From Pseudoalteromonas translucida KMM 520 (GTDB taxonomy: Bacteria > Pseudomonadota > Gammaproteobacteria > Enterobacterales > Alteromonadaceae), in NCBI RefSeq assembly GCF_001465295.1, contig NZ_CP011034.1, positions 390,001-422,000 on the forward strand: DNA of 32,000 nt. The letters run 5' to 3'. Below are positions 1,624 through 31,961 of the stretch, in pieces. The position numbers were made by a program, and so were the translations under genes. The stretch's first letter is position 1. Every line of letters begins with the position of its first letter. The notes beneath the pieces are model-generated. The model worked only from the letters and a program-made list of their open reading frames with translations, made no database searches and had not been told where the DNA came from.

Positions 1624-1832
1624 AAGGGCAGCTTTCATAAAGCTAAATTTTAGGTGTCAGATTTTAGGTATCAGGTTTTAGGTAGAAATTAGCCAAGCTC
1701 GGTGTGTGGGTTAAACCGCAGACGGGCTTAATGTCGCGCAGGTTAAGCTTTAAACCCTGCGCGAGGTAAACTTCCACCTACAAGTTAGGCGCTTGGTTTA
1801 TATCATTTACCTAAAACCTTGCGCCTAAAACT
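1624..1832 (+). repeat. structured intergenic repeat, copy 1
   Basis: It begins AAGGGCAG immediately after the gpsA stop (1621-1623). The core is ...AGGTTTTAGGTAGAAATTAGCCAAGCTCGGTGT...CGCGCAGG-N13-CCTGCGCGAGGTAAACTTCC..CTACAAG. The 3' end TACCTAAAACCTTGCGCCTAAAAC is the inverse of the 5' AGGTTTTAGGTA motif. Confidence 0.85.
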
Positions 1833-1841
1833 CTTTACTTC

Positions 1842-2416: not shown

Positions 2417-3334
2417 GTGCATAATCGCAGTTACGAATTTTGGGTAAAAACCTCTAGTTTAGTCACTATGGTCATGGTGAGCTTAATGATTGCAGCTAAA
2501 ACCTGGGCATGGCTTGCCTCGGGTTCAGCGTCAATGCTGGGCTCATTAACCGATTCACTCATGGATATTACCGCCACAGCTATGAGTTTTTTAGTATTAG
2601 GTTATGCGCTGCGCCCCGCCGATGACGACCACCGTTTTGGTCACGGCAAAGCCGAAGCGCTCGCTGGGCTAGGGCAGGCCGCATTTATTGCAGGTTCTGG
2701 CTGTTTATTAGCGTTTCATAGTATAGAGCGCTTGTTTAATCCTTTAGAGCTCACTCATTCATTGTTAGGTGTATGGGTAAGTATTTTTGCCATTGCCTGT
2801 ACATTAGTGATTGTATTTGTACAAAATAAAGTAGTTAAACATACCGAATCTATTGCAATAAAGGCCGACTCAGTACATTACAAAGGCGATTTGATTTTAA
2901 ATGCTGCGGTGCTACTGGCTATTTTACTCTCGTATTATGGTGTGTTGTACGCCGACCCTATTTTTGCAGTTGGCGTTGCCGGTTATCTACTTTATAACAG
3001 CTGGGATATAGCCCGAGATAGCGCAGATCACTTAATGGACAAAGAACTGCCAGATGAAGAAAAACAACGCATTTTAGATGTATCGAAAAGCCATACTGAC
3101 GTACGCGGTGTACACGGCGTTCGTACCCGACAAGGTGGAAAAGTTAAGTTTATTCAACTGCATTTAGAGCTAGATGATCACCTAAGCTTAATTCGCGCGC
3201 ACAACGTAGCCGATGAAGTAGAGGCAATGATCACTAAAGAATTTGAGTCAGAAGTTGATATTCTAATTCATCTAGATCCTTTGTCTTCTGTGGAACTGAG
3301 TGACACTGAGGGGGCAGCGGTAACTGAACCGTAA
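2417..3334 (+). CDS. fieF: cation diffusion facilitator family metal efflux transporter (FieF-like)
   Basis: LTDSLMDI...RPADDDHRFGHGKAEALAGL matches the FieF/YiiP signature, and a C-terminal cytoplasmic domain is present. The ORF is open from TTG 2342, but GTG 2417 gives an N-terminus the same length as E. coli FieF. The start is uncertain. Confidence 0.8.
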   Translation: MHNRSYEFWVKTSSLVTMVMVSLMIAAKTWAWLASGSASMLGSLTDSLMDITATAMSFLVLGYALRPADDDHRFGHGKAEALAGLGQAAFIAGSGCLLAFHSIERLFNPLELTHSLLGVWVSIFAIACTLVIVFVQNKVVKHTESIAIKADSVHYKGDLILNAAVLLAILLSYYGVLYADPIFAVGVAGYLLYNSWDIARDSADHLMDKELPDEEKQRILDVSKSHTDVRGVHGVRTRQGGKVKFIQLHLELDDHLSLIRAHNVADEVEAMITKEFESEVDILIHLDPLSSVELSDTEGAAVTEP

Positions 3335-3340
3335 GTAAAA

Positions 3341-3539
3341 CTGGAATTTCAGGTTAAAACCAGCAAACACTGGATTTAACCTGATACTTTTGCCCTAGAT
3401 GTGAAGTTTACCTCGCGCAGGGTTTTAAAAACGTAACCAGCGCGGCATAAAGCCCCGCCTATGGTTAACCCAAACACCGAGCTTAGTTTTTCTCTACCTA
3501 AAACCTACAACCTAACACCTCAAACCTGCTCTTCCACAC
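3341..3539 (-). repeat. structured intergenic repeat, copy 2 (the only minus-orientation copy)
   Basis: The reverse complement reads GGAAGAGCAGGTTTGAGGTGTTAGGTTGTAGGTTTTAGGTAGAG...TAAGCTCGGTGTTTGGG...TAGGCGGGGCTTTATGCCGCGC...CCTGCGCGAGGTAAACTTC. It starts 1 nt after the stop of the minus-strand pldB gene (3540-3542). Confidence 0.85.
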
Positions 3540-4472
3540 CTATTCGCAAAACTGGTACAAACTTGTTAGCAGTGGCTGGCGTATTTCATCACGTTCAAAT
3601 AATAGTTCGTGTTTAGCGCCGGCAAAGCTTTTTATTACGGCTTGGTTATGTCGGTTTGCCAGTTTATCTTGCGCGGCGTTATCTACTACTTCGTCGCGCT
3701 CTGCGCTGGCTATAAACAGTGGAATATTAATACTTAACTTATCAACCGATGCAATAAAGGTAAATGCGGCTTGTAGCCAGCCATAGGTTACGCCACCAAG
3801 CTGCAACAGTGGATCTTGATAGGTTTGCCTAAAAAATTTATAACGCACTTGGCTGCTAGTTAATGTATTTAAGGCAAACTCATCTGGGCTGTAATCGTTT
3901 TGCCCAAGGGCATAACTTTGTGAAAAACCGAAAAGCACAGCTGCGTTGGCAATCAATTTTGCCAACGGTTTTGGGGTGTTTTTAGTGTGAATGTCAAACA
4001 TGGGTGCCGATAAAAATAACCCACTAAAACTATTTTCAAAGTGGGCTAAATAGTCAAAAGCAATTGCACCGCCCATTGAGTGGCCAAGCAGTATTTTTTT
4101 GCCTTGCCAGTGATTATCAACAATTTGTTGATTAAATAAATGCAGATCGTGGCGATAATCAGTAAAGCATTTTACATAGCCTTTATGCGTATTAGCTAAG
4201 TGTCGATAAGAGCGACCTTGCCCTTGATGATCAACAATAAACACGGCAAAATTATTAGTGTACAGCTCCCACAATAGCTCTTTGTATTTATCAAGCCCTT
4301 CTATACGCCCTGAGCTAATTACAATAGCGGTATGCGCCTGTTCAGGTTTTGCATAGGCATAAAATAACTGCCCAGCAGGGGTATTTAAATAGGCTTTAAC
4401 TAGGGTGTTGTTATAAAAATCATTAATACTGGGTTGATTATTAACAAGCTCGTTTTCACTACTGTAAAACAT
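3540..4472 (-). CDS. pldB: lysophospholipase L2-like alpha/beta hydrolase
   Basis: 310 aa. SGRIEGLDKY...VDHQGQGRS...GHSMGGAIA...SAPMF...AERDEVVDN...KHELLFE is collinear with E. coli PldB as I recall it. GHSMG is the nucleophile elbow. Confidence 0.75.
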   Translation of the reverse strand: MFYSSENELVNNQPSINDFYNNTLVKAYLNTPAGQLFYAYAKPEQAHTAIVISSGRIEGLDKYKELLWELYTNNFAVFIVDHQGQGRSYRHLANTHKGYVKCFTDYRHDLHLFNQQIVDNHWQGKKILLGHSMGGAIAFDYLAHFENSFSGLFLSAPMFDIHTKNTPKPLAKLIANAAVLFGFSQSYALGQNDYSPDEFALNTLTSSQVRYKFFRQTYQDPLLQLGGVTYGWLQAAFTFIASVDKLSINIPLFIASAERDEVVDNAAQDKLANRHNQAVIKSFAGAKHELLFERDEIRQPLLTSLYQFCE

Positions 4473-7208: not shown

Positions 7209-7242
7209 CTTTTAGTTGGATAAATTTTTGGCTATATAAAAT

Positions 7243-7280
7243 AAAACACCGAGTTCCATTTGAGCTCGGTGTTTTGCTTT
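7243..7280 (+). terminator. Rho-independent terminator after cpxP
   Basis: The arms AAAACACCGAG (7243-7253) and CTCGGTGTTTT (7265-7275) form an 11-bp stem followed by a T-rich tail. The flanking A-run could allow bidirectional function. Confidence 0.7.
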
Positions 7281-7300
7281 GTATGTTGTTTAAGTAAAAC

Positions 7301-7440
7301 AAGGTGTCAGGTTTTAGATAGAGGTTAAGCCAAGCACGGTGTTTAAATTACCCGCAGGCCAAGCTTTATGCCGCGCGGGTTAAAATTTAAAAACGATTGC
7401 GCGAGGTAAACTCTCGCCTACAAATTCCAGACTAAACCTA
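7301..7440 (+). repeat. structured intergenic repeat, copy 3
   Basis: AAGGTGTCAGGTTTTAGATAGAGGTTAAGCCAAGCACGGTGTTTAAATTACCCGCAGGCCAAGCTTTATGCCGCGCGGG...GCGCGAGGTAAACTCTCGCCTACAAA. It lies between the cpxP terminator and the yacG stop. Confidence 0.85.
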
Positions 7441-7444
7441 TTTA

Positions 7445-7675
7445 TTACTTAAAAAAGTCATCTTCGTTTTTTGCCATCATGGCTTCTATGTCTTCAATCA
7501 TGTCTTGGCTAAAATCTTCAGCTGAGGTTATAGGGGCTGAAATTCTGTTATTTTCAAACGACCATTCGCCTAAATCAATAAGCTGACAACGTTTTGAACA
7601 AAACGGGCGGTGTGGGCTTTGCTCTGACCATTCAACCTTACTTTTACAGGTTGGGCAGTTAACAATAGTTGGCAT
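7445..7675 (-). CDS. yacG: DNA gyrase inhibitor YacG (zinc finger)
   Basis: 76 aa. [10 protein letters not shown]...[15 protein letters not shown] is the YacG zinc-ribbon signature. Confidence 0.9.
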
Positions 7676-11160: not shown

Positions 11161-12387
11161 CTAAATAACAGCGCCAAGTTGGAATATAGGCAAGTACATG
11201 GCAACAATTAAACCACCAACCAATACGCCAAGTACTGCCATAATCATCGGTTCTAGCAAGCTTGAGAGCCCATCTACCGCATCATCAACTTCTTGCTCAT
11301 AAATAGTCGCTACTTTGGCTAACATGCTATCAAGTGATCCCGACTCTTCACCAATAGCCACCATTTGTATTACCATATCAGGGAATATTTTAGAGTTACG
11401 CATTGCCCAGTTCATTTGGTTACCCGAGCTTACTTCGGCTTTTATTTCTAAAATAGCATAACGATAAACCGCATTACCCGAGGCTCCTGCGGCAGAATCC
11501 AGCGCATCTACTAGCGGTACACCAGCCGCAAAAGTAGTCGAAAGCGTACGCGCGTAACGGGCAACAGCAGCTTTGTTTAAAATCATACCAATAACAGGGA
11601 GCTTTAATATAGCTCTGTCTGTTGCATCACGGAGCTTTAAGCTTTTAAGGTGTGCCTCTTTAAACGCCCAACCAAAGGCAAATATTATTATAAGTATTAT
11701 CCACCAGTACTCTTGCATAAATTCCGATATAGCAATTACAAATAAGGTAAAAGCAGGGAGTTCAGCGCCAAATCCGGCAAAAATATCCTGAAATTGCGGT
11801 ACTACAAATATTAGTAATATAGAGGTAACAATAAGTGCGATAACTAATACCGCAATAGGGTAAAACATCGCTTTTTTAATTTTTGATTTAAGCGCTTCAG
11901 ACTTTTCTTTATAAATTGCAACGCGGTCGAATATTTTATCTAAAGCCCCAGACTGCTCACCCGATGCCACTAAATCACAATATAAATCATCAAAATAACG
12001 GGGGTGGCGCCTTAGTGCTTGCGATAGCGGTTGGCCAGTCTTTACTTCATCTGCAATGGTTTCCATGAGTTTACCAAGGCTTTTATTGGTTGCTCCAGTA
12101 CCAATCATTTCAATTGACTGAATTAACGGTACACCCGCCATAAGCATGGTAGCAATTTGCCGAGTGACTATGGCAATATCTTTAGGGGTGATTTTTTGTA
12201 AGCGTGCACCAAATAACGGTTTGGCTTTACGCTTTACTTTTGAGGGGGTAATACCCTGTTTACGCAGTTGGGCTTTTACTAACGCAACACTAGAACCTGT
12301 AAGCTCACCTTCTAAACGTTTCCCGCGAGTGCTAACGCCTACCCACTCAAAGGTATCTTGCCCTTTTTTTTCTTGTTGTTTAGCCAT
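11161..12387 (-). CDS. pilC: type IV pilus inner-membrane platform protein PilC
   Basis: 408 aa with duplicated T2SSF domains and three TM segments. It sits immediately upstream of pilD. Confidence 0.92.
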   Translation of the reverse strand: MAKQQEKKGQDTFEWVGVSTRGKRLEGELTGSSVALVKAQLRKQGITPSKVKRKAKPLFGARLQKITPKDIAIVTRQIATMLMAGVPLIQSIEMIGTGATNKSLGKLMETIADEVKTGQPLSQALRRHPRYFDDLYCDLVASGEQSGALDKIFDRVAIYKEKSEALKSKIKKAMFYPIAVLVIALIVTSILLIFVVPQFQDIFAGFGAELPAFTLFVIAISEFMQEYWWIILIIIFAFGWAFKEAHLKSLKLRDATDRAILKLPVIGMILNKAAVARYARTLSTTFAAGVPLVDALDSAAGASGNAVYRYAILEIKAEVSSGNQMNWAMRNSKIFPDMVIQMVAIGEESGSLDSMLAKVATIYEQEVDDAVDGLSSLLEPMIMAVLGVLVGGLIVAMYLPIFQLGAVI

Positions 12388-14054: not shown

Positions 14055-14132
14055 CTTAATTTGTTTATTTAACCTGTTTACTTAATTTGTTTATTTAAAC
14101 AGTTTACTTAAACTATTTATTTAAAAAATAAA
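14055..14132. repeat. 26-bp AT-rich tandem repeat upstream of pilA (2 good copies and 1 degenerate)
   Basis: CTTAATTTGTTTATTTAACCTGTTTA (14055-14080) and CTTAATTTGTTTATTTAAACAGTTTA (14081-14106) are 23/26 identical. A degenerate third unit lies at 14107-14132. Confidence 0.8.
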
Positions 14133-15434: not shown

Positions 15435-15470
15435 TTACTATGTTTGAAATGTAATAACCAGCTTTGTGGT

Positions 15471-15610
15471 AAAGGCAGGTTTTAGGGAAAGAGCAGGTTT
15501 TAGGTAGAAATCAGCCAAGCTCGGTGCTTAGGTTATGTATAGGCGGGGCTTTATGCCGCGCAGGTTAAAATTAAAAAGCTGCGCGAGGTAAACTCCCGGC
15601 TACAAACTCG
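15471..15610 (+). repeat. structured intergenic repeat, copy 4
   Basis: AAAGGCAGGTTTTAGGGAAAGAGCAGGTTTTAGGTAGAAATCAGCCAAGCTCGGTGCTT...TAGGCGGGGCTTTATGCCGCGCAGG-N-CTGCGCGAGGTAAACTCCCGGCTACAAA. It has two 5' modules and lies in the divergent nadC/ampD region. Confidence 0.85.
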
Positions 15611-15697
15611 GTGGTTGGTAAGCTTTTATTGCTTCGTCTATCATTTTTAAATTAAATCCTTTAGCATCGATGTTATGTCGATCTTTTGATTTAAATT

Positions 15698-16265: not shown

Positions 16266-17117
16266 ATGATTTTGGTTTCGATAATAATTGCATTAATACT
16301 TGAGCGCTTAGGTGCTCGTTCAGCCCATTGGCAAATTAGCTACTACGCAGATGGTTATGTAAATCGCTCGGCAAACCTACTTACTAATAAAGGCGTATTT
16401 GGCTCGGGTGTTGGTTTTTTAGTGTGGTTACTTTTACCTGTACTGGCTATTGGTTGTTTATATTTGCTATCTGACTTTGTGCTGTGGCAACTTATTTTTA
16501 ATGTAACAATATTACTCGTGTGTTTTGGTTGTGCTAAACAGCGTGCTTTATATAAGTCGTACTTAAATGCTTTAACCCGAGATGATAAAACCGCAGCCAC
16601 TTTATATGCACTGCAAATAGGCCAAAATCGCACAGAAGAAGAACAAGACGGCGAAACAGTGGGGCAAACCCTGGCGTGGGTTAACTTTAGGTTTTACTGC
16701 GCGGTGATTTTTTGGTTTGTAATATTAGGCGCAGCCGGTGCGGTTTTATATGCACTCGTACGCACATTCGCCGACTTGGTAACGCAAGATGACGATGAAA
16801 TAATAGCAAAGCACACTAAAATGCTACACAGGTTATTATTTTGGCTTGATTGGTTACCTGCACGTATTACCAGTTTTGGTTATTTAGTAATAGGTAACTT
16901 TAATAAAGGCACTAGTTGCTGGTTACGCTACGCGCTTGATTTTACAAGCCCTAACCGCAAAGTAGTTACTTACACCGCATTAGCCGCAGAGCAGGTAGAA
17001 AAACGTTACTACGACTGCGCGTACGAAGCTACCTGTATGATTAAACTGGTAAAACGTAATGTATTGTTTTATTTAGTACTGATTGCGTTATTAACCCTGT
17101 TTGGTGGGTTGGATTAA
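16266..17117 (+). CDS. ampE: beta-lactamase induction signal transducer AmpE
   Basis: 283-aa membrane protein. ERLGARSAHWQ, WVNFRFY and LDWLPARIT parallel E. coli AmpE as I recall it. It follows ampD. Confidence 0.8.
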   Translation: MILVSIIIALILERLGARSAHWQISYYADGYVNRSANLLTNKGVFGSGVGFLVWLLLPVLAIGCLYLLSDFVLWQLIFNVTILLVCFGCAKQRALYKSYLNALTRDDKTAATLYALQIGQNRTEEEQDGETVGQTLAWVNFRFYCAVIFWFVILGAAGAVLYALVRTFADLVTQDDDEIIAKHTKMLHRLLFWLDWLPARITSFGYLVIGNFNKGTSCWLRYALDFTSPNRKVVTYTALAAEQVEKRYYDCAYEATCMIKLVKRNVLFYLVLIALLTLFGGLD

Positions 17118-17290
17118 AAAGCAGGCTTTAGATATCAGGCTTAAGGTAGAGATAAAACTAAGCTTGGTATCTAGGCTAATCGTAGACGGAGCTTTATGCC
17201 GCGCTGTTAATTAAAAAACATTGCGCAAGGTAAACCTTACGCAGCGTGTATTTGTTTTACTTATTTTTTAACTCCTAATACCTAAATCCC
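17118..17290 (+). repeat. structured intergenic repeat, copy 5 (most diverged)
   Basis: It starts right after the ampE TAA (17115-17117): AAAGCAGGCTTTAGATATCAGGCTTAAGGTAGAGATAAAACTAAGCTTGGTAT...TAGACGGAGCTTTATGCCGCGCTG...TTGCGCAAGGTAAACC. The tail is ...AATACCTAAATCCC. Confidence 0.75.
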
Positions 17291-21065: not shown

Positions 21066-21950
21066 ATGAGTATTGAAATTAAAGTACCCGATATCGGTGG
21101 TGATGAAGTAGAAGTAACCGAAATATTAGTAGCCGTTGGCGACGTTGTTGAAGTTGACCAAGCATTACTAACCGTTGAGGGCGACAAAGCGTCAATGGAA
21201 GTACCGGCCGACACTGCTGGCACAGTAAAAGAGATTAAAGTAAGCATTGGCGACAACGTAGCTACTGGCTCTTTAGTGTTTATCTTTGAGGGCGAGAGTG
21301 CAGGCGAAAGCGCAAGTACAGCTAAAAGCGACAGTGCAGCAGAGCAAAAAGCGCCTGCAACTGACGCTAAGCCAGCACCAGCGGCTTCTAGCTCTGCAGT
21401 ACAAGACGTAACTTTGCCAGATATTGGCGATGACGAAGTTGAAGTAACTGAAATATTAGTAGCCGTTGGCGACAGCGTTACTGAAGATCAGTCTATTTTA
21501 AGCGTTGAAGGCGACAAAGCATCAATGGAAGTACCTGCGCCATTTGCTGGCACAGTGAAAGAAATTAAAGTAGCGACTGGCGATACAGTAAAAACTGGTT
21601 CATTGGTATTTGTATTTGAAGTAGCAGGTAGCGAGTCTGCAGCACCAGCAGCTGAATCAACACCAGCCGAAACTAAAGCAGCACCGGCAGCAGCCGAGCA
21701 AAGCTCAGCATCAAGCACAAAAGAAGTTAACGTGCCTGATATTGGTGGCGACGAAGTTGAAGTGACCGAAATTTTAGTAGCCGTTGGCGACAGCGTTACT
21801 GAAGATCAATCGCTACTAAACGTTGAAGGCGACAAAGCGGCAATGGAGCTTCCGGCACCGTTTGCAGGCACAGTTAAAGAAATTAAAGTAGCTACGGGCG
21901 ACAAAGTATCGACCGGCTCGTTAATTTTTGTTTTTGAAGTTGCTGGTGGC
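21066..21950 (+). repeat. three tandem lipoyl-domain coding repeats inside aceF
   Basis: The units lie at about 21066-21290, 21399-21627 and 21720-21950. GAAATATTAGTAGCCGTTGGCGAC is shared by units 1 and 2, and GTAGCCGTTGGCGACAGCGTTACTGAAGATCA by units 2 and 3. Confidence 0.9.
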
Positions 21951-23021
21951 GCACCCGCTGCAGCCGCTAAACCAGAAGCCGAAAAATCTGCACCTGCTGC
22001 TAAAAGCGAAAAGCCAGCGCCAAAAGCCGAAACAGCGACGCAATCTGCTCCAGCAGCTAGCAACGAAAGCTTTGCCAATAACAGCGCGTATGCACATGCA
22101 TCGCCTGTGGTACGCCGTTTAGCACGTGAGTTTGGTATAAACCTAGCTAACGTAAAAGGCTCTGGCCGTAAAAACCGCGTAGTAAAAGACGACGTGCAAA
22201 ACTATGTTAAAAACCTAGTTAAGCAAGTTGAATCTGGTCAATTGTCGGCAGGTAAAGGCAACGCAGGCGGCAGTGAGCTTGGGCTTATTCCATGGCCTAA
22301 AGTTGATTTTGCTAAGTTTGGCGAAATTGAAGAGAAAAAACTATCGCGTATTCAAAAGCTATCGGGTAAAAACTTACACCGTAACTGGGTGCAAATCCCA
22401 CATGTTACTCAGTTCGACGAAGCCGATATAACAAGCCTTGAAGAATTCCGTAAAGAGCAAAATGCCCTTAACGAGAAGAAAAAGCTAGGTGTTAAAATTA
22501 CGCCATTAGTATTTGTAATGAAAGCCGCAGCAAAAGCGTTGGCCGAATTTCCAACTATTAACTCGTCACTGTCTAACGACGGTGAAAGCTTAATTCTTAA
22601 AAAGTACATTAATATTGGTGTAGCGGTTGATACGCCAAATGGTTTAGTAGTACCTGTGTTTAAAGATGTTGATAAAAAAGGCATTATTGAACTATCGCGC
22701 GAGCTAATGGAAGTATCTGTTAAAGCACGCGACGGTAAGCTTACCTCGGCAGATATGCAAGGTGGCTGTTTTACTATTTCAAGCTTAGGCGGTATTGGCG
22801 GTACGGCATTTACGCCGATTGTTAACGCGCCAGAAGTGGCTATTTTAGGTGTATCTAAATCTGAAATGAAGCCAAAATGGAATGGTAAAGAGTTTGAACC
22901 AAAACTTATGGTGCCATTGTCAATGTCGTACGACCATAGAGTGATTGACGGTGCGCTAGCAGCACGCTTTACTGTTACGCTGGCAAGCTACATGAGCGAT
23001 ATTCGTCAATTAGTGATGTAA
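21066..23021 (+). CDS. aceF: dihydrolipoyllysine-residue acetyltransferase E2 with three lipoyl domains
   Basis: There are three lipoyl domains ([11 protein letters not shown] twice and [11 protein letters not shown] once), Ala/Pro-rich linkers, the E3-binding domain [16 protein letters not shown] and the catalytic DHRVIDG. Confidence 0.97.
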
Positions 23022-24626: not shown

Positions 24627-24656
24627 AAAAACCCAAGCCCAGCTTGGGTTTTTTTA
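24627..24656 (+). terminator. Rho-independent terminator after lpdA
   Basis: In AAAAACCCAAGC-CCA-GCTTGGGTTTTTTT the stem is 24631-24638 paired with 24642-24649, followed by a T-run. Confidence 0.8.
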
Positions 24657-24663
24657 TGGGCGA

Positions 24664-24862
24664 AAAGCAGGTATTAGGTTAAGAGCAGGTATTAGGTTAA
24701 GAGCAGGTTTTAGGCAGAGATCAAACCAAGCTCAGTGTCTGGAGGTATGCGTAGGCGGGGCTTTATGCCGCGCTTATTAATATTAAAAAACTGCGCGAGG
24801 TAAACTTTCGGCTACAGGGTTGTATTACCTTATTGATACCTAAAACCTGAACGCTAAAATAC
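24664..24862 (+). repeat. structured intergenic repeat, copy 6 (three 5' modules)
   Basis: GCAGGTATTAGGTTAAGA occurs twice (24667-24684 and 24685-24702), followed by GCAGGTTTTAGGCAGAGA (24703-20). The core is ATCAAACCAAGCTCAGTGT...TAGGCGGGGCTTTATGCCGCGC...CTGCGCGAGGTAAACTTTCGGCTACAG. The 3' end is GATACCTAAAACCTGAACGCTAAAA. Confidence 0.88.
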
Positions 24863-24943: not shown

Positions 24944-25618
24944 GTGAAAAATGCCGTTTTAGCATTACGTGCCCAACAAATAAGCGAATCGCGCCGTGAG
25001 TTCAATGCTCGGGGTGCTAAAATGACACGTTGCCAGCAATGCTTACTTGCAGAGCTTTACTGTATTTGCGAAGGGGTTATACAGGCCGATTGCGACGCTG
25101 CTGTTTGTTTACTTATGTATCATAATGAAAGCTTTAAACCTTCAAATACTGGGCGTTTAATCGCCGAAATAATACCTGAAAACTATGCATTTAGATGGGA
25201 CAGAACCGATCCCGATGCCAAACTATTAGCATTAATAAACGATCCACAATATCAGCCTATGGTGGTATTTCCTGCTGAAGATGTAGAGCCGGGCAGAGCC
25301 GTAACTGAAGTAAATATAACAGCCGGTAAAAAACCGCTATTTATATTTTTAGACGGCACCTGGCGCGAAGCTAAAAAAATGATCCGCAAAAGTCCGTATT
25401 TAGATAACCTTCCGGTATTATCGATCACTGCCGACAAACTCTCAGACTACCGCCTACGCGTTGCTCCCCATGCGCACCAACTCGGCACTGCAGAAGTGGC
25501 CATTATGGTGTTAGCGTTAGCGGGAGAGAAGGATGCAGCCTCTAAATTAGAACAGCACTTTATAAAATTCCGCGACGCGTACTTATTAGGTAAACGTAAT
25601 AAAGGTAGGCCAGAGTAA
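24944..25618 (+). CDS. tapT: DTW-domain tRNA-uridine aminocarboxypropyltransferase (YfiP/TapT-like)
   Basis: It is collinear with E. coli YfiP as I recall it (NAVL.LRA...RC.QCLL....C.C, PSNTGRLIA, YQPMVVFPA, PLFI.LDGTW.EA.KM.RKSPYLDNLPV, YRLR, TAEVAI). The start is GTG 24944, with AAGG 9 nt upstream. Confidence 0.85.
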   Translation: MKNAVLALRAQQISESRREFNARGAKMTRCQQCLLAELYCICEGVIQADCDAAVCLLMYHNESFKPSNTGRLIAEIIPENYAFRWDRTDPDAKLLALINDPQYQPMVVFPAEDVEPGRAVTEVNITAGKKPLFIFLDGTWREAKKMIRKSPYLDNLPVLSITADKLSDYRLRVAPHAHQLGTAEVAIMVLALAGEKDAASKLEQHFIKFRDAYLLGKRNKGRPE

Positions 25619-25808
25619 AAAGGGCAGGTTTTAGATATTAGGTTTCAGGCAGAGGTAAGCCAAGCACGGTGTTTAAGCTGCCCGTAGGCGGGGCTTTATA
25701 CCGCGCTTGTTAAAATAAAAAAACTGCACAAGGTAAACTCCTATCTATAAATCAGGATCGAGCTATATCACTTAGCTAGAACTTAAAACTAGAACCTCAC
25801 ACCTGACG
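25619..25808 (+). repeat. structured intergenic repeat, copy 7
   Basis: It starts right after the tapT TAA (25616-25618): AAAGGGCAGGTTTTAGATATTAGGTTTCAGGCAGAGGTAAGCCAAGCACGGTGTTTAAGCTGCCCGTAGGCGGGGCTTTATACCGCGC...GCACAAGGTAAACTCC. The 3' end is CTTAAAACTAGAACCTCACACCTGAC. Confidence 0.85.
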
Positions 25809-26027: not shown

Positions 26028-27569
26028 ATGAATCAGCAAAAACAAGCTATAGTCGACCAGGAAGTTACTTTTGGTATTGATGAAGAACTGCTTTCTACTA
26101 CAGATTTGCAAGGAGTCATAACTTACGCAAATGATAACTTTTGTAAAGTTGCTGGATATACATTAGACGAGCTAGTAGGTAATAACCATAGTATGGTGCG
26201 CCACCCAGATATGCCCAAAGCTGCATTTGCCGATTTATGGTCTAATTTAAAGAATGATATTGCTTGGCGAGGTGCAATTAAAAATAGATGTAAAAATGGT
26301 CAATACTACTGGGTTGACGCATTTGTAACGCCCATTTATGAAAGCGGTAAAAAAATTGGCTATCAATCTGTTAGACGCCGACTATTACCAGAGTACTTAA
26401 ACAGTGCAGAAAAACTGTATCAGCGGATTAATAGTGGTAAGTCTATAAATACATTTACTCATAAGCTATCAGTACTCAAACTCCCTATATATTTATGCTT
26501 TAGTGCACTTTTTGCTTGGTTAGTTAGTTATTCACTGTGGTTTATTTTGCTGTTTATTCCTCTGCCTTTTGTTATTTATTATGATCAGCTCGTTTTATCG
26601 CAGCGATACCTTAAAAAAAGAAAAGCCGAGTCAGACAGTATTTCTCGCCATGTGTTTTCGGGCAGTAATATATTTAGTTTTGCAGATTTTCAAATTAAAT
26701 TACTCGAAGGCAAAGTCACTACAATAGTAGGGCGGATCATCGATGGAACATTGAGTTTAGAAAAAGGTGCCAATTCGCTCAAAGCCGTTGCTCAAAAATC
26801 TAAATTGGGAGTTGAAAAAGAAGCTGCAGAGCTACATCAGGTTTCGTCAGCGGTTGAGCAAATGGTTAACTCAATTGATGAAGTTGCCAAAAGTACTGTT
26901 ATAACTACCCAAAAAGTAAATCAAGCGCATTCAAATTGTGAGGCAGCTACACAAGCTATGTCGCAAACTATGGATAAAGTTTCTTTACTCGCAAATGAGG
27001 TAGATAACTCAGCTAATTCAGCTACAGAATTAGCCAAAGAGGCAGGTAAAATTGGCGATATCATGCAAGAAATTCAAGGTATTGCAGATCAAACTAATTT
27101 ACTTGCGCTAAATGCAGCCATCGAGGCAGCGCGTGCTGGAGAGCATGGAAGAGGTTTTTCTGTAGTTGCAGATGAAGTTCGCGCACTATCAAGTAGAACT
27201 CACTCTGCCACTGAGCAAATACAAACATCTATAGCAGAAATGCAGTCAACGTTATTAAGCTGGTCTAAAACGATGGAAGTTGGAAAAAACGCTGCCGAAG
27301 ACTGTGTTAAAGAAACACGCCAAACACAAGAAGTAGTTTCTCAGGTTCATCTTTCTATTAGCGATATTTCAGATATCACGAGCCAAATATCTACAGCTGC
27401 CGAAGAACAAAGTATGGTATCGCAAGAGATTAGCCGTAACATTTACAACATTAGTGAAACCTCAAGCGAAAACCTAACTCAAGCACAATTAGTAGAAGTT
27501 GAATCAGACTCTATTGATAAACGCTCAAAAATGCTTGCATCATTAGGGTTATCTTTCAAAGTAGATTAA
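26028..27569 (+). CDS. PAS-domain methyl-accepting chemotaxis protein (Aer-like energy/aerotaxis receptor)
   Basis: It has the N-terminal Aer-type PAS ([43 protein letters not shown]), a central hydrophobic hairpin, and the MCP signalling hairpin [40 protein letters not shown]. Confidence 0.88.
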
Positions 27570-27700
27570 AGGGCGGGTAAGAGCAGGCATCAGGCAGAGA
27601 TTAAGCCAAGCTCGGTGTTTAAATTACCCGTAGGCGGGGCTTTATGCCGCACTTGCTAAAATTAAAAAGCATTGCGCGAGGTAAACTCCCAACTGCAAGC
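27570..27700 (+). repeat. structured intergenic repeat, copy 8
   Basis: It starts right after the MCP TAA (27567-27569): AGGGCGGGTAAGAGCAGGCATCAGGCAGAGATTAAGCCAAGCTCGGTGTTTAAATTACCCGTAGGCGGGGCTTTATGCCGCAC...TTGCGCGAGGTAAACTCCCAACTGCAAG. Confidence 0.85.
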
Positions 27701-27707
27701 TCAAGGT

Positions 27708-27740
27708 TAAAGATCAAACCAAGCTCGGTATTAAAGCCAA
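27708..27740 (+). repeat. partial extra repeat fragment (left-core module only)
   Basis: AAAGATCAAACCAAGCTCGGTATTAAAGCC matches the AGAGATCAAACCAAGCTCAGTGT segment of copy 6. Confidence 0.6.
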
Positions 27741-27764
27741 ACACGTTGTTTGGCTGGATTTTTA
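27735..27764 (+). terminator. hairpin plus T-run (candidate terminator for the MCP transcript)
   Basis: AGCCAAACA (27735-27743), loop CGT, TGTTTGGCT (27747-27755), then GGATTTTTA. Confidence 0.5.
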
Positions 27765-27843: not shown

Positions 27844-28173
27844 TCTGCGCTCATTTAGTTTGACATTGTGTTTTTTGCAATTGATTACAAGTGTTGATTG
27901 CTATGGAAAGCTGGGTATTAACTACCAAGAAAGCCTCGAAATAAACAGCGAGCGAACTGCAATAAAAAACCACTTTCCAATTAGTAAATCACAATAGATT
28001 AATTGCCTTACACGCAAATTTAAAGCTAAGCGCTTTATGGCTTATAAGTGAAGTTTTACACATCTCTTTTAGTCACTATAAGTTTTAGCTAAAATTAGAG
28101 AGCACAACGGTATTTACTGATAGTGCTTTTTGATGTGTATTTTTAATACCAAAAATCAAAAATTAAATTTTAC

Positions 28174-28210
28174 CAGTACGTAGGAACTGCAACCTAGGGG
28201 CGGAAGCGTG
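28174..28210 (+). promoter_or_regulatory. JUMPStart-like element with ops-like motif (RfaH antitermination site)
   Basis: CAGTACGTAGGAACTGCAACCTAGGGGCGGAAGCGTG compared with the JUMPStart consensus as I recall it, CAGTGCTCTGGTAGCTGTTAAGCCAGGGGCGGTAGCGTG. The ops core GGCGGTAG is here GGCGGAAG (28199-28206). It is in the untranslated leader of a polysaccharide export operon. Confidence 0.6.
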
Positions 28211-28359
28211 TCCGAAGGACTAGAGAGTAAATAGATATACTTTTAGATTGGAGCGAGAAAAGCTCTGCGACGAACAGGGCCGCAAGCGTGTTTGAGGTCA
28301 TAAGCGCTAAGAAGATAAAGTTTTTAGTAAAGAGTAAGGGTCCAGCAACTATATTGAAG

Positions 28360-28392
28360 AACCTAGAACCTAGAACCTAGAACCTAGAACCT
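28360..28392. repeat. heptanucleotide microsatellite (AACCTAG) x 4.7
   Basis: AACCTAG occurs at 28360, 28367, 28374 and 28381, with a partial AACCT at 28388-28392. It lies 100 nt upstream of the wza start. Confidence 0.95.
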
Positions 28393-28491: not shown

Positions 28492-29604
28492 ATGGCGTTA
28501 CGCTGTAAATCTCTCGCTACCTCTCTCGTCCTATTAGCAATGACTGGTTGTACAATTATACCAGGCAGCCATTTTGAAGGCATAGAGCCTGGTAATCAAA
28601 CAACTAATCTCGAGCAAGAGCTCGAAAAAGTAAATATTCAAATTATTGACTCGTCGCTTATTTCACAACAAAAAAATGCACGTAAAGCGGCAAAACCAAT
28701 TTCTAGCCTAGTAGGTGTTAACACCAGTAATTATAAATATAAATTAGGTGTAGGCGATGTAGTAACGGTAGGTGTATGGGATCACCCAGAGCTTACAATA
28801 CCAGCAGGTACGCAGCGTACGGCTGAGTTCGACGGCTTTAAAGTACAAGAGGACGGTACTATTACTTATGCTTACGCAGCAAATATTCCAGCAGCTGGGC
28901 ATACGATAAGCGAGTTACGCAAAGATTTAGTATCACGTTTAGCGCGAGTAATAGAAAACCCACAAGTAGACGTAAAAATAGTTAGCTTTAAAAGCCAAAA
29001 AACGTATGTAACGGGTGAAGTCAAACAGCCAGGCGTATACCCAGTAACCGATATACCACTTACTTTAATAGATGCGCTTAACCAAGCTGGCGGATTAACT
29101 AAAGAAGCCGATTGGCGCACAGTGACCTTTACTCGTGGTAATAAAACCGAAGTCATTAAATTAGAAGACTTTTACGCCAATGGTGATATTTCACAAAATC
29201 GCTTGTTACAACATGGCGACATAGTGCACGTAAACCGTAACGACAAACAAAAAGTATTTGTTTTAGGTGATGTAAATAAAGCAGGTTCGGTGAGCATAAC
29301 GCGTTACGGGTTAAACTTAGCAGAAGCACTTTCTAACACCGGTGGCTTAAACGAAAACACCGCCGATGCAAATGGTGTGTTTGTGCTGCGTAAACGTAAC
29401 CTGGAACAAACCGGAATAATTGCCGACGTATATCAGTTGCATGCTAAAAACATAGCTGCATTAGTACTTGCTGAGCAGTTTGAACTACAACCGCACGACA
29501 TTGTATATGTAACCTCAGCACCGCTGGCACGTTGGAACCGTGTAATAAGCTTGTTACTACCTTCGGTAGCAACAGTTGATAACCTTAACGACATTAATAA
29601 CTAA
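28492..29604 (+). CDS. wza: polysaccharide export outer-membrane lipoprotein Wza
   Basis: It has the lipobox LLAMTG|C, a Poly_export domain (YKLGVGDVVTVGVWDHPEL) and SLBB repeats. It is followed by wzb and wzc. Confidence 0.9.
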   Translation: MALRCKSLATSLVLLAMTGCTIIPGSHFEGIEPGNQTTNLEQELEKVNIQIIDSSLISQQKNARKAAKPISSLVGVNTSNYKYKLGVGDVVTVGVWDHPELTIPAGTQRTAEFDGFKVQEDGTITYAYAANIPAAGHTISELRKDLVSRLARVIENPQVDVKIVSFKSQKTYVTGEVKQPGVYPVTDIPLTLIDALNQAGGLTKEADWRTVTFTRGNKTEVIKLEDFYANGDISQNRLLQHGDIVHVNRNDKQKVFVLGDVNKAGSVSITRYGLNLAEALSNTGGLNENTADANGVFVLRKRNLEQTGIIADVYQLHAKNIAALVLAEQFELQPHDIVYVTSAPLARWNRVISLLLPSVATVDNLNDINN

Positions 29605-29616
29605 GGGTTAATTAAC

Positions 29617-30051
29617 ATGTTTGATTCTGTATTAGTGGTCTGTGCAGGCAATATTTGCCGCAGCCCAACTGCTGAATATATATTAAAAGCAAAGCTTGAA
29701 GGCAAAAATATTACTGTATCGTCAGCTGGTTTAACTGCACTTGAAGGTAAATCAGCCGACGCCACAGCAAAGCAAATAGCGCAAGTGCATGGCATAAATA
29801 TGGACTCACACCAAGGTCGCCAACTTAACTCGCAACTAATTGCACAAAATAGTGTGATTTTAGTAATGGAACAGCGCCATTTAACTGACCTATGTAGCCG
29901 CTATCCAGAAGCTCGTGGTAAAACATTTTTACTCGGTAAATGGATTAACGACACTGAAATACCCGATCCGTACCGTCAAAGCCAAGAGGCTTTTGACCAT
30001 GTATACGCATTAATCGACAGCGCCTGTAGCGCTTGGCAAAAGTATTTATAA
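29617..30051 (+). CDS. wzb: low-molecular-weight protein-tyrosine phosphatase Wzb
   Basis: It has the CX5R(S/T) P-loop VCAGNICRSP and the DP motif (IPDPY). 144 aa. Confidence 0.92.
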   Translation: MFDSVLVVCAGNICRSPTAEYILKAKLEGKNITVSSAGLTALEGKSADATAKQIAQVHGINMDSHQGRQLNSQLIAQNSVILVMEQRHLTDLCSRYPEARGKTFLLGKWINDTEIPDPYRQSQEAFDHVYALIDSACSAWQKYL

Positions 30052-30054
30052 GGA

Positions 30055-31185
30055 ATGGCTAATTTAATGAATACTCAGCCTAACAACAGCTCAAACACTC
30101 AAAAGCAAGTAAGTAATACAACACAGCAAGCGCAAGAAATTGACTTAATGGCATTACTTGGTGCACTGCTCGATCGTAAGTATTTTATAGTGGCAGTTAC
30201 TGCATTATTTATGCTAGTAGGTGTGGTTTATGCGGTTTTAAGCACACCTGTATACCAAGCAAGCGCAATGATACAGGTTGAGAATAGTAGTAGCTCTGTA
30301 CCTGGTTTTGACGACATGGCCGGTATGTTCGAAAGTACCTCTGCTGCCGTTACAGAAATAGAACTATTAAAGTCGCGTAGTATCATAGGCGAAGCGGTAG
30401 ATACGTTAAAACTAGATATAACTGCAGAGCCAAAGTTATTTCCATTAGTTGGTAGCCGTGCCTATCGTAAGTTTACGCCAATGGAGCAAGGCGATTTAGC
30501 CGAGCCAAGCTTTGGTGCAGATAGCTATGCCTGGGGCGGCGAAAGCATTAGCGTATTTAGATTTGACGTACCTAGCCGAGCTATTAATCAAACATACACA
30601 CTAGTAGCACAAGCCAATAACAGCGTTGCTTTATTAGATGGTGAAGGTGAGCAAATACTTAGTGGCAAAGTGGGAGATGAGCTAAGCAATGGTAAATTTA
30701 ATTTAACCATACGTAGCTTAATTGCTCGCCCAGGTACTGAGTTTTTATTAAGCCGAAAAGATCGCCTAAATACTATTTTAGATTTACAAGCTGCTATCGG
30801 CGCAAGCGAAAAAGGCAAAGACTCTGGCATAATTAATTTAAGCCTACAAAGTACTAAACCAAGCTACGCCGAAAAGGTACTAGATAAAGTCGCTGCTATT
30901 TATGTACGCCGTAACGTAGAGCGAAATAGTGCTGAAGCTCAAAAGTCGCTAGAGTTCTTAGAAGTGCAACTGCCTGAAATTAAAAAACAACTTGAATTTG
31001 CAGAGCAGCGCTTTAACGACTACCAAATTAAACGCCAATCAATAAACATAACACTCGAAACCCAAGGCGTGCTTGAACAAGTAGTCGTGCTTGAAACTAA
31101 ATTACAAGAGCTAGAACTAAAGCGCCTAGAGATCAGTCGTAAATTTAAAAAAGACCACCCAACCTACCTAATGCCGATCAGTTAA
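30055..31185 (+). pseudogene. wzc: tyrosine autokinase / polysaccharide co-polymerase Wzc, N-terminal half only, truncated by IS insertion
   Basis: It has TM1, a periplasmic Wzz/coiled-coil domain, and sequence up to ...KKDHPTY (E. coli Wzc has KEHPAY at the equivalent point, about residue 370 of about 720). It then reads LMPIS* into foreign sequence. TM2, the Walker A/B kinase domain and the Tyr-rich tail are missing. Confidence 0.85.
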
Positions 31186-31224: not shown

Positions 31225-31259
31225 AATCCGTAATTAGTTTCGCTAATTACGGATTTTTT
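31225..31259 (+). terminator. 13-bp perfect hairpin plus T-run inside the IS end, immediately upstream of the transposase ATG
   Basis: AATCCGTAATTAG (31225-31237), loop TTTCG, CTAATTACGGATT (31243-31255), then TTTT, then ATG at 31260. Confidence 0.6.
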
Positions 31260-31961
31260 ATGGATATTCAAACAGCTCTTTCGACCACTTTCTCATCTGC
31301 CGAGGAATTTACAGCGCTTGATAACTTATCTGGCATATTAGATCCCGAATTACTTAACCAAGCTTTTGAAAAATCGGGGGTCGCCACCGTTCGTAAACGT
31401 CGTTTACCACTCGACGCTGTCGTTTGGTCTGTGATTGGTATGAGTTTATTTCGTCATGAATCTGTTTGGGATATAGCCTCTAAAATGGACATCGCCTTAC
31501 CAGGTAAAGGGAAACTAGTTGCCCCTAGTGCCATGGTTCAAGCGAGACAACGCTTAGGTGAAGGTGCTGTCGAGCAGGTCTTCAAGATGATGGCGTCACG
31601 GCATTATAATCATGCCCACTTTGATACATTTTGTGGCTTAAATCTATTAGCTGTTGATGGGGTTGTCTTTCGTACACATGATACGCCAGAGAATAAAGAC
31701 GTATTTGGATGTGGCTCAACCCAGTATGGTGAAAATACCTATCCGCAAATTCGGATGGTATGCCACATGGAGCTAACGAGTCATCAACTCATTAATTGTG
31801 CTTTTAACGGGCAGCATCAAGGGGAGATGACACTCGCTGAAGAACTCATTGAAGGCACACCGGATAACTCATTAACCTTATTTGATCGCGGTTATTATTC
31901 ATTAGGGCTTTTGCATCGTTGGCATCAAGCAGGGACTGAAAGACACTGGATGATACCATAA
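31260..31961 (+). CDS. IS4-family (InsG-like) DDE transposase, N-terminal 233 aa; the frame closes prematurely
   Basis: [82 protein letters not shown] and HWMIP are collinear with E. coli IS4 InsG as I recall it. TAA at 31959-31961 falls where homologues continue. Confidence 0.8.

Follow-up and report, generated by a model that had tools for sequence, protein, structure and literature searches.

Why do the copies of a single repeat lie so tightly behind the 3′ ends of bacterial genes, and does the orientation of these copies follow that of transcription? The question is raised by 32,000 nt of the Pseudoalteromonas translucida KMM 520 chromosome (NZ_CP011034.1, positions 390,001 to 422,000; this whole stretch is hereafter the window), a Pseudoalteromonas-type chromosome segment with 29 called genes, 13 of them on the minus strand. 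Repeat finding revealed eight ~200-nt copies of one repeat family in these 32 kb, and two degenerate patterns each recovered the full set (8/8, 0 expected). As an earlier reading of the bare sequence (the original prediction) had stated, the eight belong to one repeat and a single copy is inverted: seven lie on the plus strand and one on the minus strand (3338–3529). All eight are intergenic.

Based on GTAG palindrome doublets, tandem amplification and, in relatives, a gene for a REP-associated tyrosine transposase (RAYT) inside the body unit of the repeat, we assign the copies to a REP/REPIN family (repetitive extragenic palindromes, REPs, and their inverted doublets) of Pseudoalteromonas. 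They would be non-autonomous palindromes maintained by RAYT, and we place the probability of this sequence-based assignment at roughly 0.7. Membership of a REP/REPIN-RAYT system explains the placement at gene 3′ ends, which is ordinary for REPs. The eight copies are positioned as follows.

Copy 1, 1624..1835, plus strand: between convergent gpsA (+) and trmL (−), nearly filling the 218-nt spacer; heptamer array at ~1646–1684, head core to ~1716, REPIN-like body at ~1717–1781 and a tail with inverted CCTAAAAC units to ~1835.
Copy 2, 3338..3529, minus strand: between convergent fieF (+, stop 3332–3334) and pldB (−, stop TAG 3540–3542); body at ~3396–3462.
Copy 3, 7297..7444, plus strand: between convergent cpxP (+) and yacG (−, 7445–7675), ~20 nt past the cpxP terminator (7242–7276); body at ~7354–7421.
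Copy 4, 15466..15620, plus strand: in the divergent nadC (−)/ampD (+) spacer, head towards the nadC start codon (15431), with the 5′ end 37 nt from that codon; body at ~15539–15603.
Copy 5, 17118..17290, plus strand: directly after the ampE TAA (17115–17117), upstream of pdhR; body at ~17182–17245; some relatives carry the RAYT gene here.
Copy 6, 24663..24850, plus strand: 8 nt past the T-run of the lpdA terminator (24635–24651); three 18-nt head units, body at ~24751–24815; other relatives carry the RAYT gene here.
Copy 7, 25619..25805, plus strand: directly after the TAA (25616–25618) of the DTW-domain gene (DTW/tapT); body at ~25684–25748.
Copy 8, 27570..27760, plus strand: directly after the TAA (27567–27569) of a methyl-accepting chemotaxis protein (MCP) gene; body at ~27630–27696, then a partial second head.
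Downstream part of copy 8, 27735–27755: a terminator-like hairpin.

Counting window spacers of at least 60 nt, elements occupy 3/3 convergent spacers, 4/7 tandem spacers on the plus strand, 0/4 tandem spacers on the minus strand and the single divergent spacer (1/1). Copies 1 and 2 span their spacers end to end, and at the far end each turns the reverse complement of the heptamer motif towards the stop codon of the opposite gene. In a published survey of REPs (Di Nocera 2013, PMC3733652), those between convergent genes lie <20 bp from the 3′ ends of both open reading frames (ORFs), those between unidirectional genes lie near the 3′ end of the upstream ORF while their spacing to the next ORF varies, and GTAG REPs in many cases provide the stop codon. 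Seven of the eight window copies fit this convergent and unidirectional placement and one is divergent. Pseudoalteromonas has 0 mentions in that survey, and we found no literature description of the family in this genus.

Anatomy of the repeat

Each copy is a mosaic: 7-nt NAGGNNN units form a variable array, which is followed by a conserved head, a REPIN-like doublet body and a tail of inverted heptamers. The 5′ array is built from (T/C)AGG(T/C)(A/T)T units, usually after (T)AAAGGGCAGG, and forms tandem runs of 7-nt or compound 14/18-nt units at 1646–1684, 3496–3527, 15471–15504 and 24666–24714. The head, as defined by alignment with copies from relatives, is the stretch AGAGAT.AAGCCAAGCTCGGTGTTTAAGTTAC and is conserved over ~35 nt. 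The body reads GTAG-GCGGGGC-TTTAT-GCCGCGC, an AT-rich spacer, and GCGCGAG-GTAAA-CTCCCGC-CTAC; it comprises two inverted 23-nt REPs, each with a GTAG tag and a 5-nt loop on a 7-bp stem whose central mismatch is conserved, and the two are separated by the ~21-nt AT-rich spacer and point their tags outwards. The body consensus and per-position stem counts were taken from 92 unique copies. Among these, stem positions are ~85–95% Watson-Crick and 6 of 7 are mostly paired, while the central mismatch is G.G in 86/92 copies and C.C in 62/92. The tags (GTAGGCGGGG... and ...CCCGCCTAC) are seen in the arrays of relatives, in the 92-copy consensus and in the per-position counts, and the outer stem GTAGGCGGG/CCCGCCTAC pairs; several window copies carry degenerate tags (GCAG, ATAG).

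The outer heptamer arms are inverted (5′ arm NAGGNNN, 3′ arm NNNCCTN), and the whole ~200-nt element forms one long imperfect hairpin. The predicted RNA fold of copy 1 is a single long hairpin closed by pairing between head and tail (−79.2 kcal/mol, z −5.3). The body reads asymmetrically: the antisense strand presents a REP hairpin and then a U-run, and the sense loop is A-rich. An intrinsic-terminator scan flagged 0/8 bodies in sense, the body of copy 5 in antisense and the separate hairpin after copy 8. Rfam yielded no match at gathering score, with chance-level hits only in a permissive scan, and RNAalifold found 0–1 compensatory pairs in a covariation analysis of the sense-strand RNA. Stem mismatches of the G.T and A.C type are symmetric across the 92 copies (22 v 18, 33 v 32, 56 v 49) and therefore give no sign of structure selected on the sense RNA only.

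Heptamer number varies at matching sites among strains with identical flanking proteins (L014–L023, L058–L067; labels of this form denote stretches from related strains or assemblies), and the arrays therefore behave as a variable number tandem repeat (VNTR). We infer that units are gained and lost by slippage or unequal recombination. Other REP families of the genus are flanked by other heptamers, namely ACGGGTN and CCTCGAA in L004 and CCCGTTG in L039 and L047. A perfect (AGAACCT)x5 array with no REP body attached lies at 28358–28392, ~600 nt past copy 8, and like runs occur in L035, L069 and L071. Three further readings of the heptamers and head were dropped: CsrA sites, as the units contain AGG(T/C) and not GGA; a site for integration host factor (IHF) in the head, as no stretch matched the consensus; and peptide coding by the 7-nt arrays, as these have no triplet phase.

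Relation to REP, REPIN and RAYT systems

Relatives were reached through strains with identical LpdA or GpsA. Their matching spacers hold the same elements in the same orientation, and these can be amplified in tandem to as many as 8 body units (L017, 82-nt period) or 8 head-plus-body units (L067). The amplified arrays are head-to-tail repeats of the ~82-nt inverted doublet or of a ~140-nt head-plus-doublet unit, and they reach 1.2 kb in a single spacer.

Among relatives whose LpdA is identical, a 150-aa gene is embedded in a body unit, either between ampE and pdhR or between lpdA and DTW. The product scores 129–132 bits on the NF047646 REP_Tyr_transpos model (cut-off 80) and 32 bits on NF033573 transpos_IS200, below the threshold of 55, and it matches E. 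coli TnpArep (PDB 4er8, E = 3.5e-7). The motifs HIH and ARYIVANP are visible in it, and homologues are named RAYT in the sources; by these sequence matches the gene is a RAYT. REPs flank the gene in the L014–L023, L033, L048–L057 and L004 stretches, all from relatives. It occupies ampE-pdhR in L014, L022 and L023 and lpdA-DTW in L015, L017–L019, L021 and L033, in versions that are 94% identical, and wherever this close RAYT is present it runs antisense to the body. L016 carries a different RAYT in the lpdA-DTW spacer (11714–12169; 43% identical); it lies on the opposite strand and has no complete body unit next to it. Each sampled strain has at most one RAYT copy in the stretches examined, at one of the two fixed spacers, and look-ups with RAYT returned fixed loci only and no new element sites. 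An IS110-family transposase is inserted beside RAYT in the REP array of the ampE-pdhR spacer in L022 (2433–3416), L048, L051, L052 and L054–L056; insertion of IS110 into REPs is known (PMC12288879).

The family has much in common with GTAG REPs, such as E. coli REP/BIME, and their RAYT/TnpArep transposases (Messing 2012, PMC3479197; Corneloup 2021, PMC8266576; Di Nocera 2013, PMC3733652): the GTAG tag with an imperfect palindrome and conserved mismatch, dense extragenic copies, mosaic clusters like those of bacterial interspersed mosaic elements (BIMEs), a Y1 transposase gene flanked by repeats, and a position in convergent or unidirectional spacers tight against the 3′ end of the preceding ORF, whose stop they sometimes provide. 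It differs from them in the ~35-nt conserved head and the heptamer VNTR arms, and in consisting of direct tandem repeats of an inverted doublet instead of alternating Y/Z REPs; the regularly spaced, alternating REPs with defined linkers that mark BIMEs of the E. coli type are absent here. With the REPINs of Pseudomonas fluorescens SBW25 (Bertels & Rainey 2011, PMC3116915) it shares two inverted REPs around a short spacer in one long hairpin, and a RAYT that is low-copy and apparently mostly vertical, here found at the same two spacers across the sampled strains. It departs from the SBW25 pattern in that RAYT lies at either of two spacers among strains with identical LpdA, and in the third, 43%-identical RAYT of L016.

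Elements of the IS200/IS605 type and the palindrome-associated transposable elements (PATEs) derived from them also combine a Y1 HUH enzyme with hairpin ends, single-strand chemistry and strand-biased insertion next to a short target. The transposase found here scores 32 bits on the IS200 model as against 129–132 on the RAYT model, and in the stretches examined its gene is not multicopy along with the repeats. We rejected an IS200/IS605-derived PATE on this sub-threshold score and on the limit of one gene copy per strain in the stretches examined.

ERIC elements of Yersinia and Correia elements of Neisseria are imperfect palindromes of ~120–200 nt with inverted ends; they are co-transcribed with their neighbours, and their effects on mRNA stability reportedly depend on orientation. 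Both are miniature inverted-repeat transposable elements (MITEs) with TA target duplications and no RAYT. The present repeat shares the imperfect palindrome, the inverted ends and the expected co-transcription, and it differs in its link to RAYT and in that no TA duplication is defined. Compared with a classical MITE derived from a DDE transposon, inverted heptamer arms are present, no target duplication is definable, and the only insertion sequence in the window, an IS4 fragment, has unrelated sequence upstream. Derivation from that fragment was dropped on the same unrelated upstream sequence.

Under the REP/REPIN assignment, copies would persist where they are harmless, downstream of genes and in convergent or unidirectional spacers, and would extend up to the last functional base of the upstream unit, whether stop codon or terminator. 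The hairpin probably works as E. coli REPs do, as a barrier to 3′-exonucleases or an attenuator. REPs are said to stabilise upstream mRNA (work of Newbury in 1987), BIMEs reportedly attenuate transcription (Espeli, 2001), and REPs within 15 nt of a stop codon are reported to stall ribosomes (Liang, Rudd and Deutscher, 2015).

Several observations weigh against the assignment. By tblastn there is no RAYT in the window, L020 is likewise without one in this region, and the link to RAYT runs through close relatives. We found no clean empty site with a target duplication. Described REP/REPIN families show nothing equivalent to the head and heptamer arrays, so that "ordinary REP" may understate what the element is, and the co-orientation of 4/4 tandem copies together with abutment of a stop at 7 of ~10 independent sites may exceed what passive tolerance would produce.

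The heptamer arms and head are the sole unusual feature of the family, and one worth following up. We consider it highly unlikely that the arms are functional, as a mobile two-way boundary between transcription units; the suggestion comes from their base composition. A gene from either side would meet a G-rich (NAGGNNN)n tract, the REPIN hairpin and then a C-rich, G-poor (NNNCCUN)n tract. This order would leave the transcript with a 3′ end shielded by the hairpin and would place a tract for Rho loading immediately ahead of the adjoining gene or promoter. Genes without terminators would in this way obtain 3′ ends and insulation from a repeat that a RAYT maintains, with the rapidly varying heptamer number tuning the effect.

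Stop codons, transcription and replication

The 5′ end of the element lies 0–1 nt after the TAA of gpsA (1621–1623), ampE, DTW/tapT and MCP. The original prediction had placed five copies 0–3 nt after a stop codon; these four bear it out, whereas at pldB the distance is greater. The 10 nt after the pldB TAG (GTGTGGAAGA on the minus strand, 3530–3539) are native flank that is also present in the 45-nt spacer of element-free L068, and the element therefore starts ~10 nt past the TAG. Copies 3 and 6 were correctly placed just behind the cpxP (7242–7276) and lpdA (24635–24651) terminators. Stop and terminator junctions are fixed in up to 10 related strains per site, while the number of 7-nt units behind them varies; across strains, the distance from the gene end to the AGAGAT anchor is 32–73 nt for gpsA, 86–121 for lpdA, 23–57 for pldB and 39–138 for nadC|ampD. 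At the SAM_MT|deac site a gap of 95 nt separates stop and element in 5 strains; direct contact occurs only in L064 and looks like the result of a secondary deletion.

One account of these junctions is that insertion is targeted to TAA or A-rich sequence, or that the element brings its own TAA, and that the stop codons are simply tolerated TAA sites. We find this doubtful as the main explanation, with the evidence divided. TAA directly precedes A(G)GGCAGG at gpsA, ampE, DTW and MCP, and TAA before AGGGCAGG also occurs in non-stop contexts (GTGGTAA|AGGCAGG at nadC|ampD; GGCTAA|AGGGCAG after the lpdA terminator in L016); internal units of the tandem arrays start ..ATTAAGAGCAGG or ..TTAAGAGCAGG. 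Without the element (L065), gpsA has a TGA stop and then a hairpin of its own; every filled allele has TAA, and the encoded protein is the same. DTW ends in TAG in element-free L017 and L021 and in TAA in most filled alleles. Because stop codons differ in this way between element-free and filled alleles, the A-rich 5′ end of the element, (T)AAAGGGCAGG, may overlap or supply the TAA stop, as GTAG REPs are published to do (PMC3733652). Against a general TAA rule, the pldB copy begins 10 nt beyond its TAG, the lpdA copy opens with GCGAAAAGCAGG and lacks the TAA, five strains have 95 nt between stop and element at SAM_MT|deac, no stop context is commoner in an AT-rich genome than TAA with A after it, and no target duplication is seen. 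The DTW/tapT coding sequence closes with 17 nt (AAAGGCAGGCCAGAGTAA, 25599–25618) that resemble a head unit and are also present in element-free L017 and L021; the likeness is either coincidence or a hint of homology-guided placement.

Five sites have no terminator between the stop codon and the element, and the upstream transcript must therefore enter the element, which would be co-transcribed as a 3′ untranslated region (UTR). Such a position would suit a dedicated, orientation-sensitive 3′ UTR RNA module (a stabiliser, a terminator or insulator, or a source of small RNA) in which selection keeps the element co-oriented with its host gene. The missing terminators at five host genes agree with such a module, as do the stop-codon junctions that are conserved while the array behind them varies, the hairpins found instead in the element-free alleles of gpsA and the deac-side spacer, and the asymmetry of the body between sense and antisense. 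The symmetric G.T and A.C stem mismatches and the absence of an Rfam match speak against it.

The original prediction took pldB to be the single minus-strand host gene and its copy to be the informative case, from which it held that orientation tracks transcription and not chromosome strand. As noted above, 13/29 called genes are on the minus strand, and copies 1 (gpsA|trmL), 2 (fieF|pldB) and 3 (cpxP|yacG) all lie between convergent genes. In a convergent spacer either orientation is co-oriented with one neighbour, and these three copies, that of pldB included, are therefore uninformative. The informative tandem copies, behind ampE, lpdA, DTW and MCP, are co-oriented in 4/4 cases (two-sided binomial p = 0.125). 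The plus strand of the window has positive GC skew and corresponds to the plus strand at ~0.4 Mb in the complete 3.2–3.5-Mb chromosomes CP011036.1 and CP133571.1; it is probably the leading strand. The tandem copies are therefore also co-oriented with replication, and the 7:1 strand bias fits replication equally. The four tandem spacers behind minus-strand genes (96–562 nt), which would separate the transcription and replication models, contain no element.

Further sites were sought with the degenerate core patterns, and orthologous sites were collapsed before independent tandem sites were counted. A scan of genome contigs matched 12 stretches in other Pseudoalteromonas. A metagenome scan found 24 loci, chiefly the nadC-ampE-lpdA region again, and so few new independent sites; viral contigs had 0 matches for either pattern, and the plasmid collection a single 37-nt match. 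Look-ups of MCP paralogues returned mainly orthologues in other genera, and one yielded an element-free MCP|pldB spacer. The further independent headed tandem sites are L035, which is co-oriented, and L047, which is anti-oriented and where a tail-type array abuts the upstream stop codon. Overall, 5/6 independent headed tandem sites are co-oriented (one-sided p ~0.11), which is not significant and is confounded with replication strand. In other Pseudoalteromonas, related REPs form headless arrays, and these are anti-oriented at 6/6 tandem sites seen. A rule linking repeat orientation to transcription is not established and is confounded with replication direction. With L047 anti-oriented in a tandem spacer and copy 4 in a divergent promoter spacer set against the co-orientation of L035 and the four window copies, we regard the dedicated 3′ UTR module as tentative and on balance unlikely. 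What stands of the original set of proposals (3′ UTR module, TAA targeting or selection) is the conserved position at 3′ ends, the five sites without a terminator and a plausible overlap with TAA; the orientation rule does not.

Orientation might instead derive from replication. A Y1 (HUH) transposase acting on the single-stranded lagging-strand template would give one orientation per replichore, and most genes are co-oriented with replication as well. Seven of the eight copies are on the plus strand, in keeping with the positive GC skew and the position in complete chromosomes, no element occurs in the four tandem spacers behind minus-strand genes, and lagging-strand targeting is described for IS200/IS605 relatives (PMC6006769). 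The pldB copy, however, with up to 8 tandem units, is inverted in 11/11 strains sampled. Since both strands of the REP doublet carry GTAG hairpins, there is no obvious reason to expect a strand rule, and the 7:1 ratio gives only p ~0.07 with copies that are not all independent of gene orientation. We judge a replication origin of the bias quite unlikely.

For annotators, the analysis supplies the name and the structural layout of a very dense repeat of the Pseudoalteromonas haloplanktis/nigrifaciens group, whose arrays break assemblies, yield spurious ORFs and vary between strains like a VNTR. The REP/REPIN assignment would extend the REP/REPIN-RAYT system to Alteromonadales in an unusual mosaic with heptamer arms. 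Filled, amplified, RAYT-bearing and empty spacers with identical flanking proteins form a natural allele series suited to tests of the effect of REPs on mRNA 3′ ends. The finding alone gives no new rule tying repeat orientation to transcription.

Other features of the window and its relatives

The genes of the window lie in this order.

Window gene order: secB, gpsA, trmL (−), fieF, pldB (−), cpxA/R (−), cpxP, yacG (−), pilB-pilin genes (−), nadC (−), ampD, ampE, pdhR, aceE, aceF, lpdA, the DTW-domain gene (tapT), PAS-MCP, polysaccharide genes, IS4 fragment.

The segment at 28150–28290 is conserved in relatives upstream of the Wzz gene and contains GGCGGAAGCGTG and GCCGCAAGCGTG, which resemble the ops/JUMPstart element (GGCGGTAGnnTG). 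Its probable role is that of an RfaH-type leader to the polysaccharide genes that follow. The proteins encoded at 28492–29604 and 30055–31185 have no exact match in the assembly collection, unlike those of gpsA and lpdA, and 28492–31185 looks like a strain-specific segment of the polysaccharide locus. A strong hairpin with a T-run (31225–31255) lies upstream of the IS4-family transposase ORF (31260–31961), whose 233 aa cover positions 4–201 of a 332-position profile; this ORF is probably truncated or frameshifted.

Beside one REP site, the SAM_MT flank is replaced in L059 (2418–3280) by a type I-F CRISPR array (repeat GTGACCTGCCGTATAGGCAGCTGAGAAT) with csy genes. In other strains this position is taken by GAPS4-type defence genes (L061) or by a sucrose-utilisation cluster (L063). 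The variable island thus has its boundary at the REP.

We also observed a 259-bp contig filed under Psychrobacter sp. (L012) that carries a near full-length Pseudoalteromonas element (110 bits) and is probably a contaminant in that assembly. Two other repeats occur in the window. An AT-rich tandem repeat with a 13/26-nt period and ~5 copies lies at 14055–14125 in the 562-nt spacer between a pilin gene and nadC, and three ~247-nt direct repeats inside aceF (21073–21967) are the usual triplicated lipoyl domains and not mobile.

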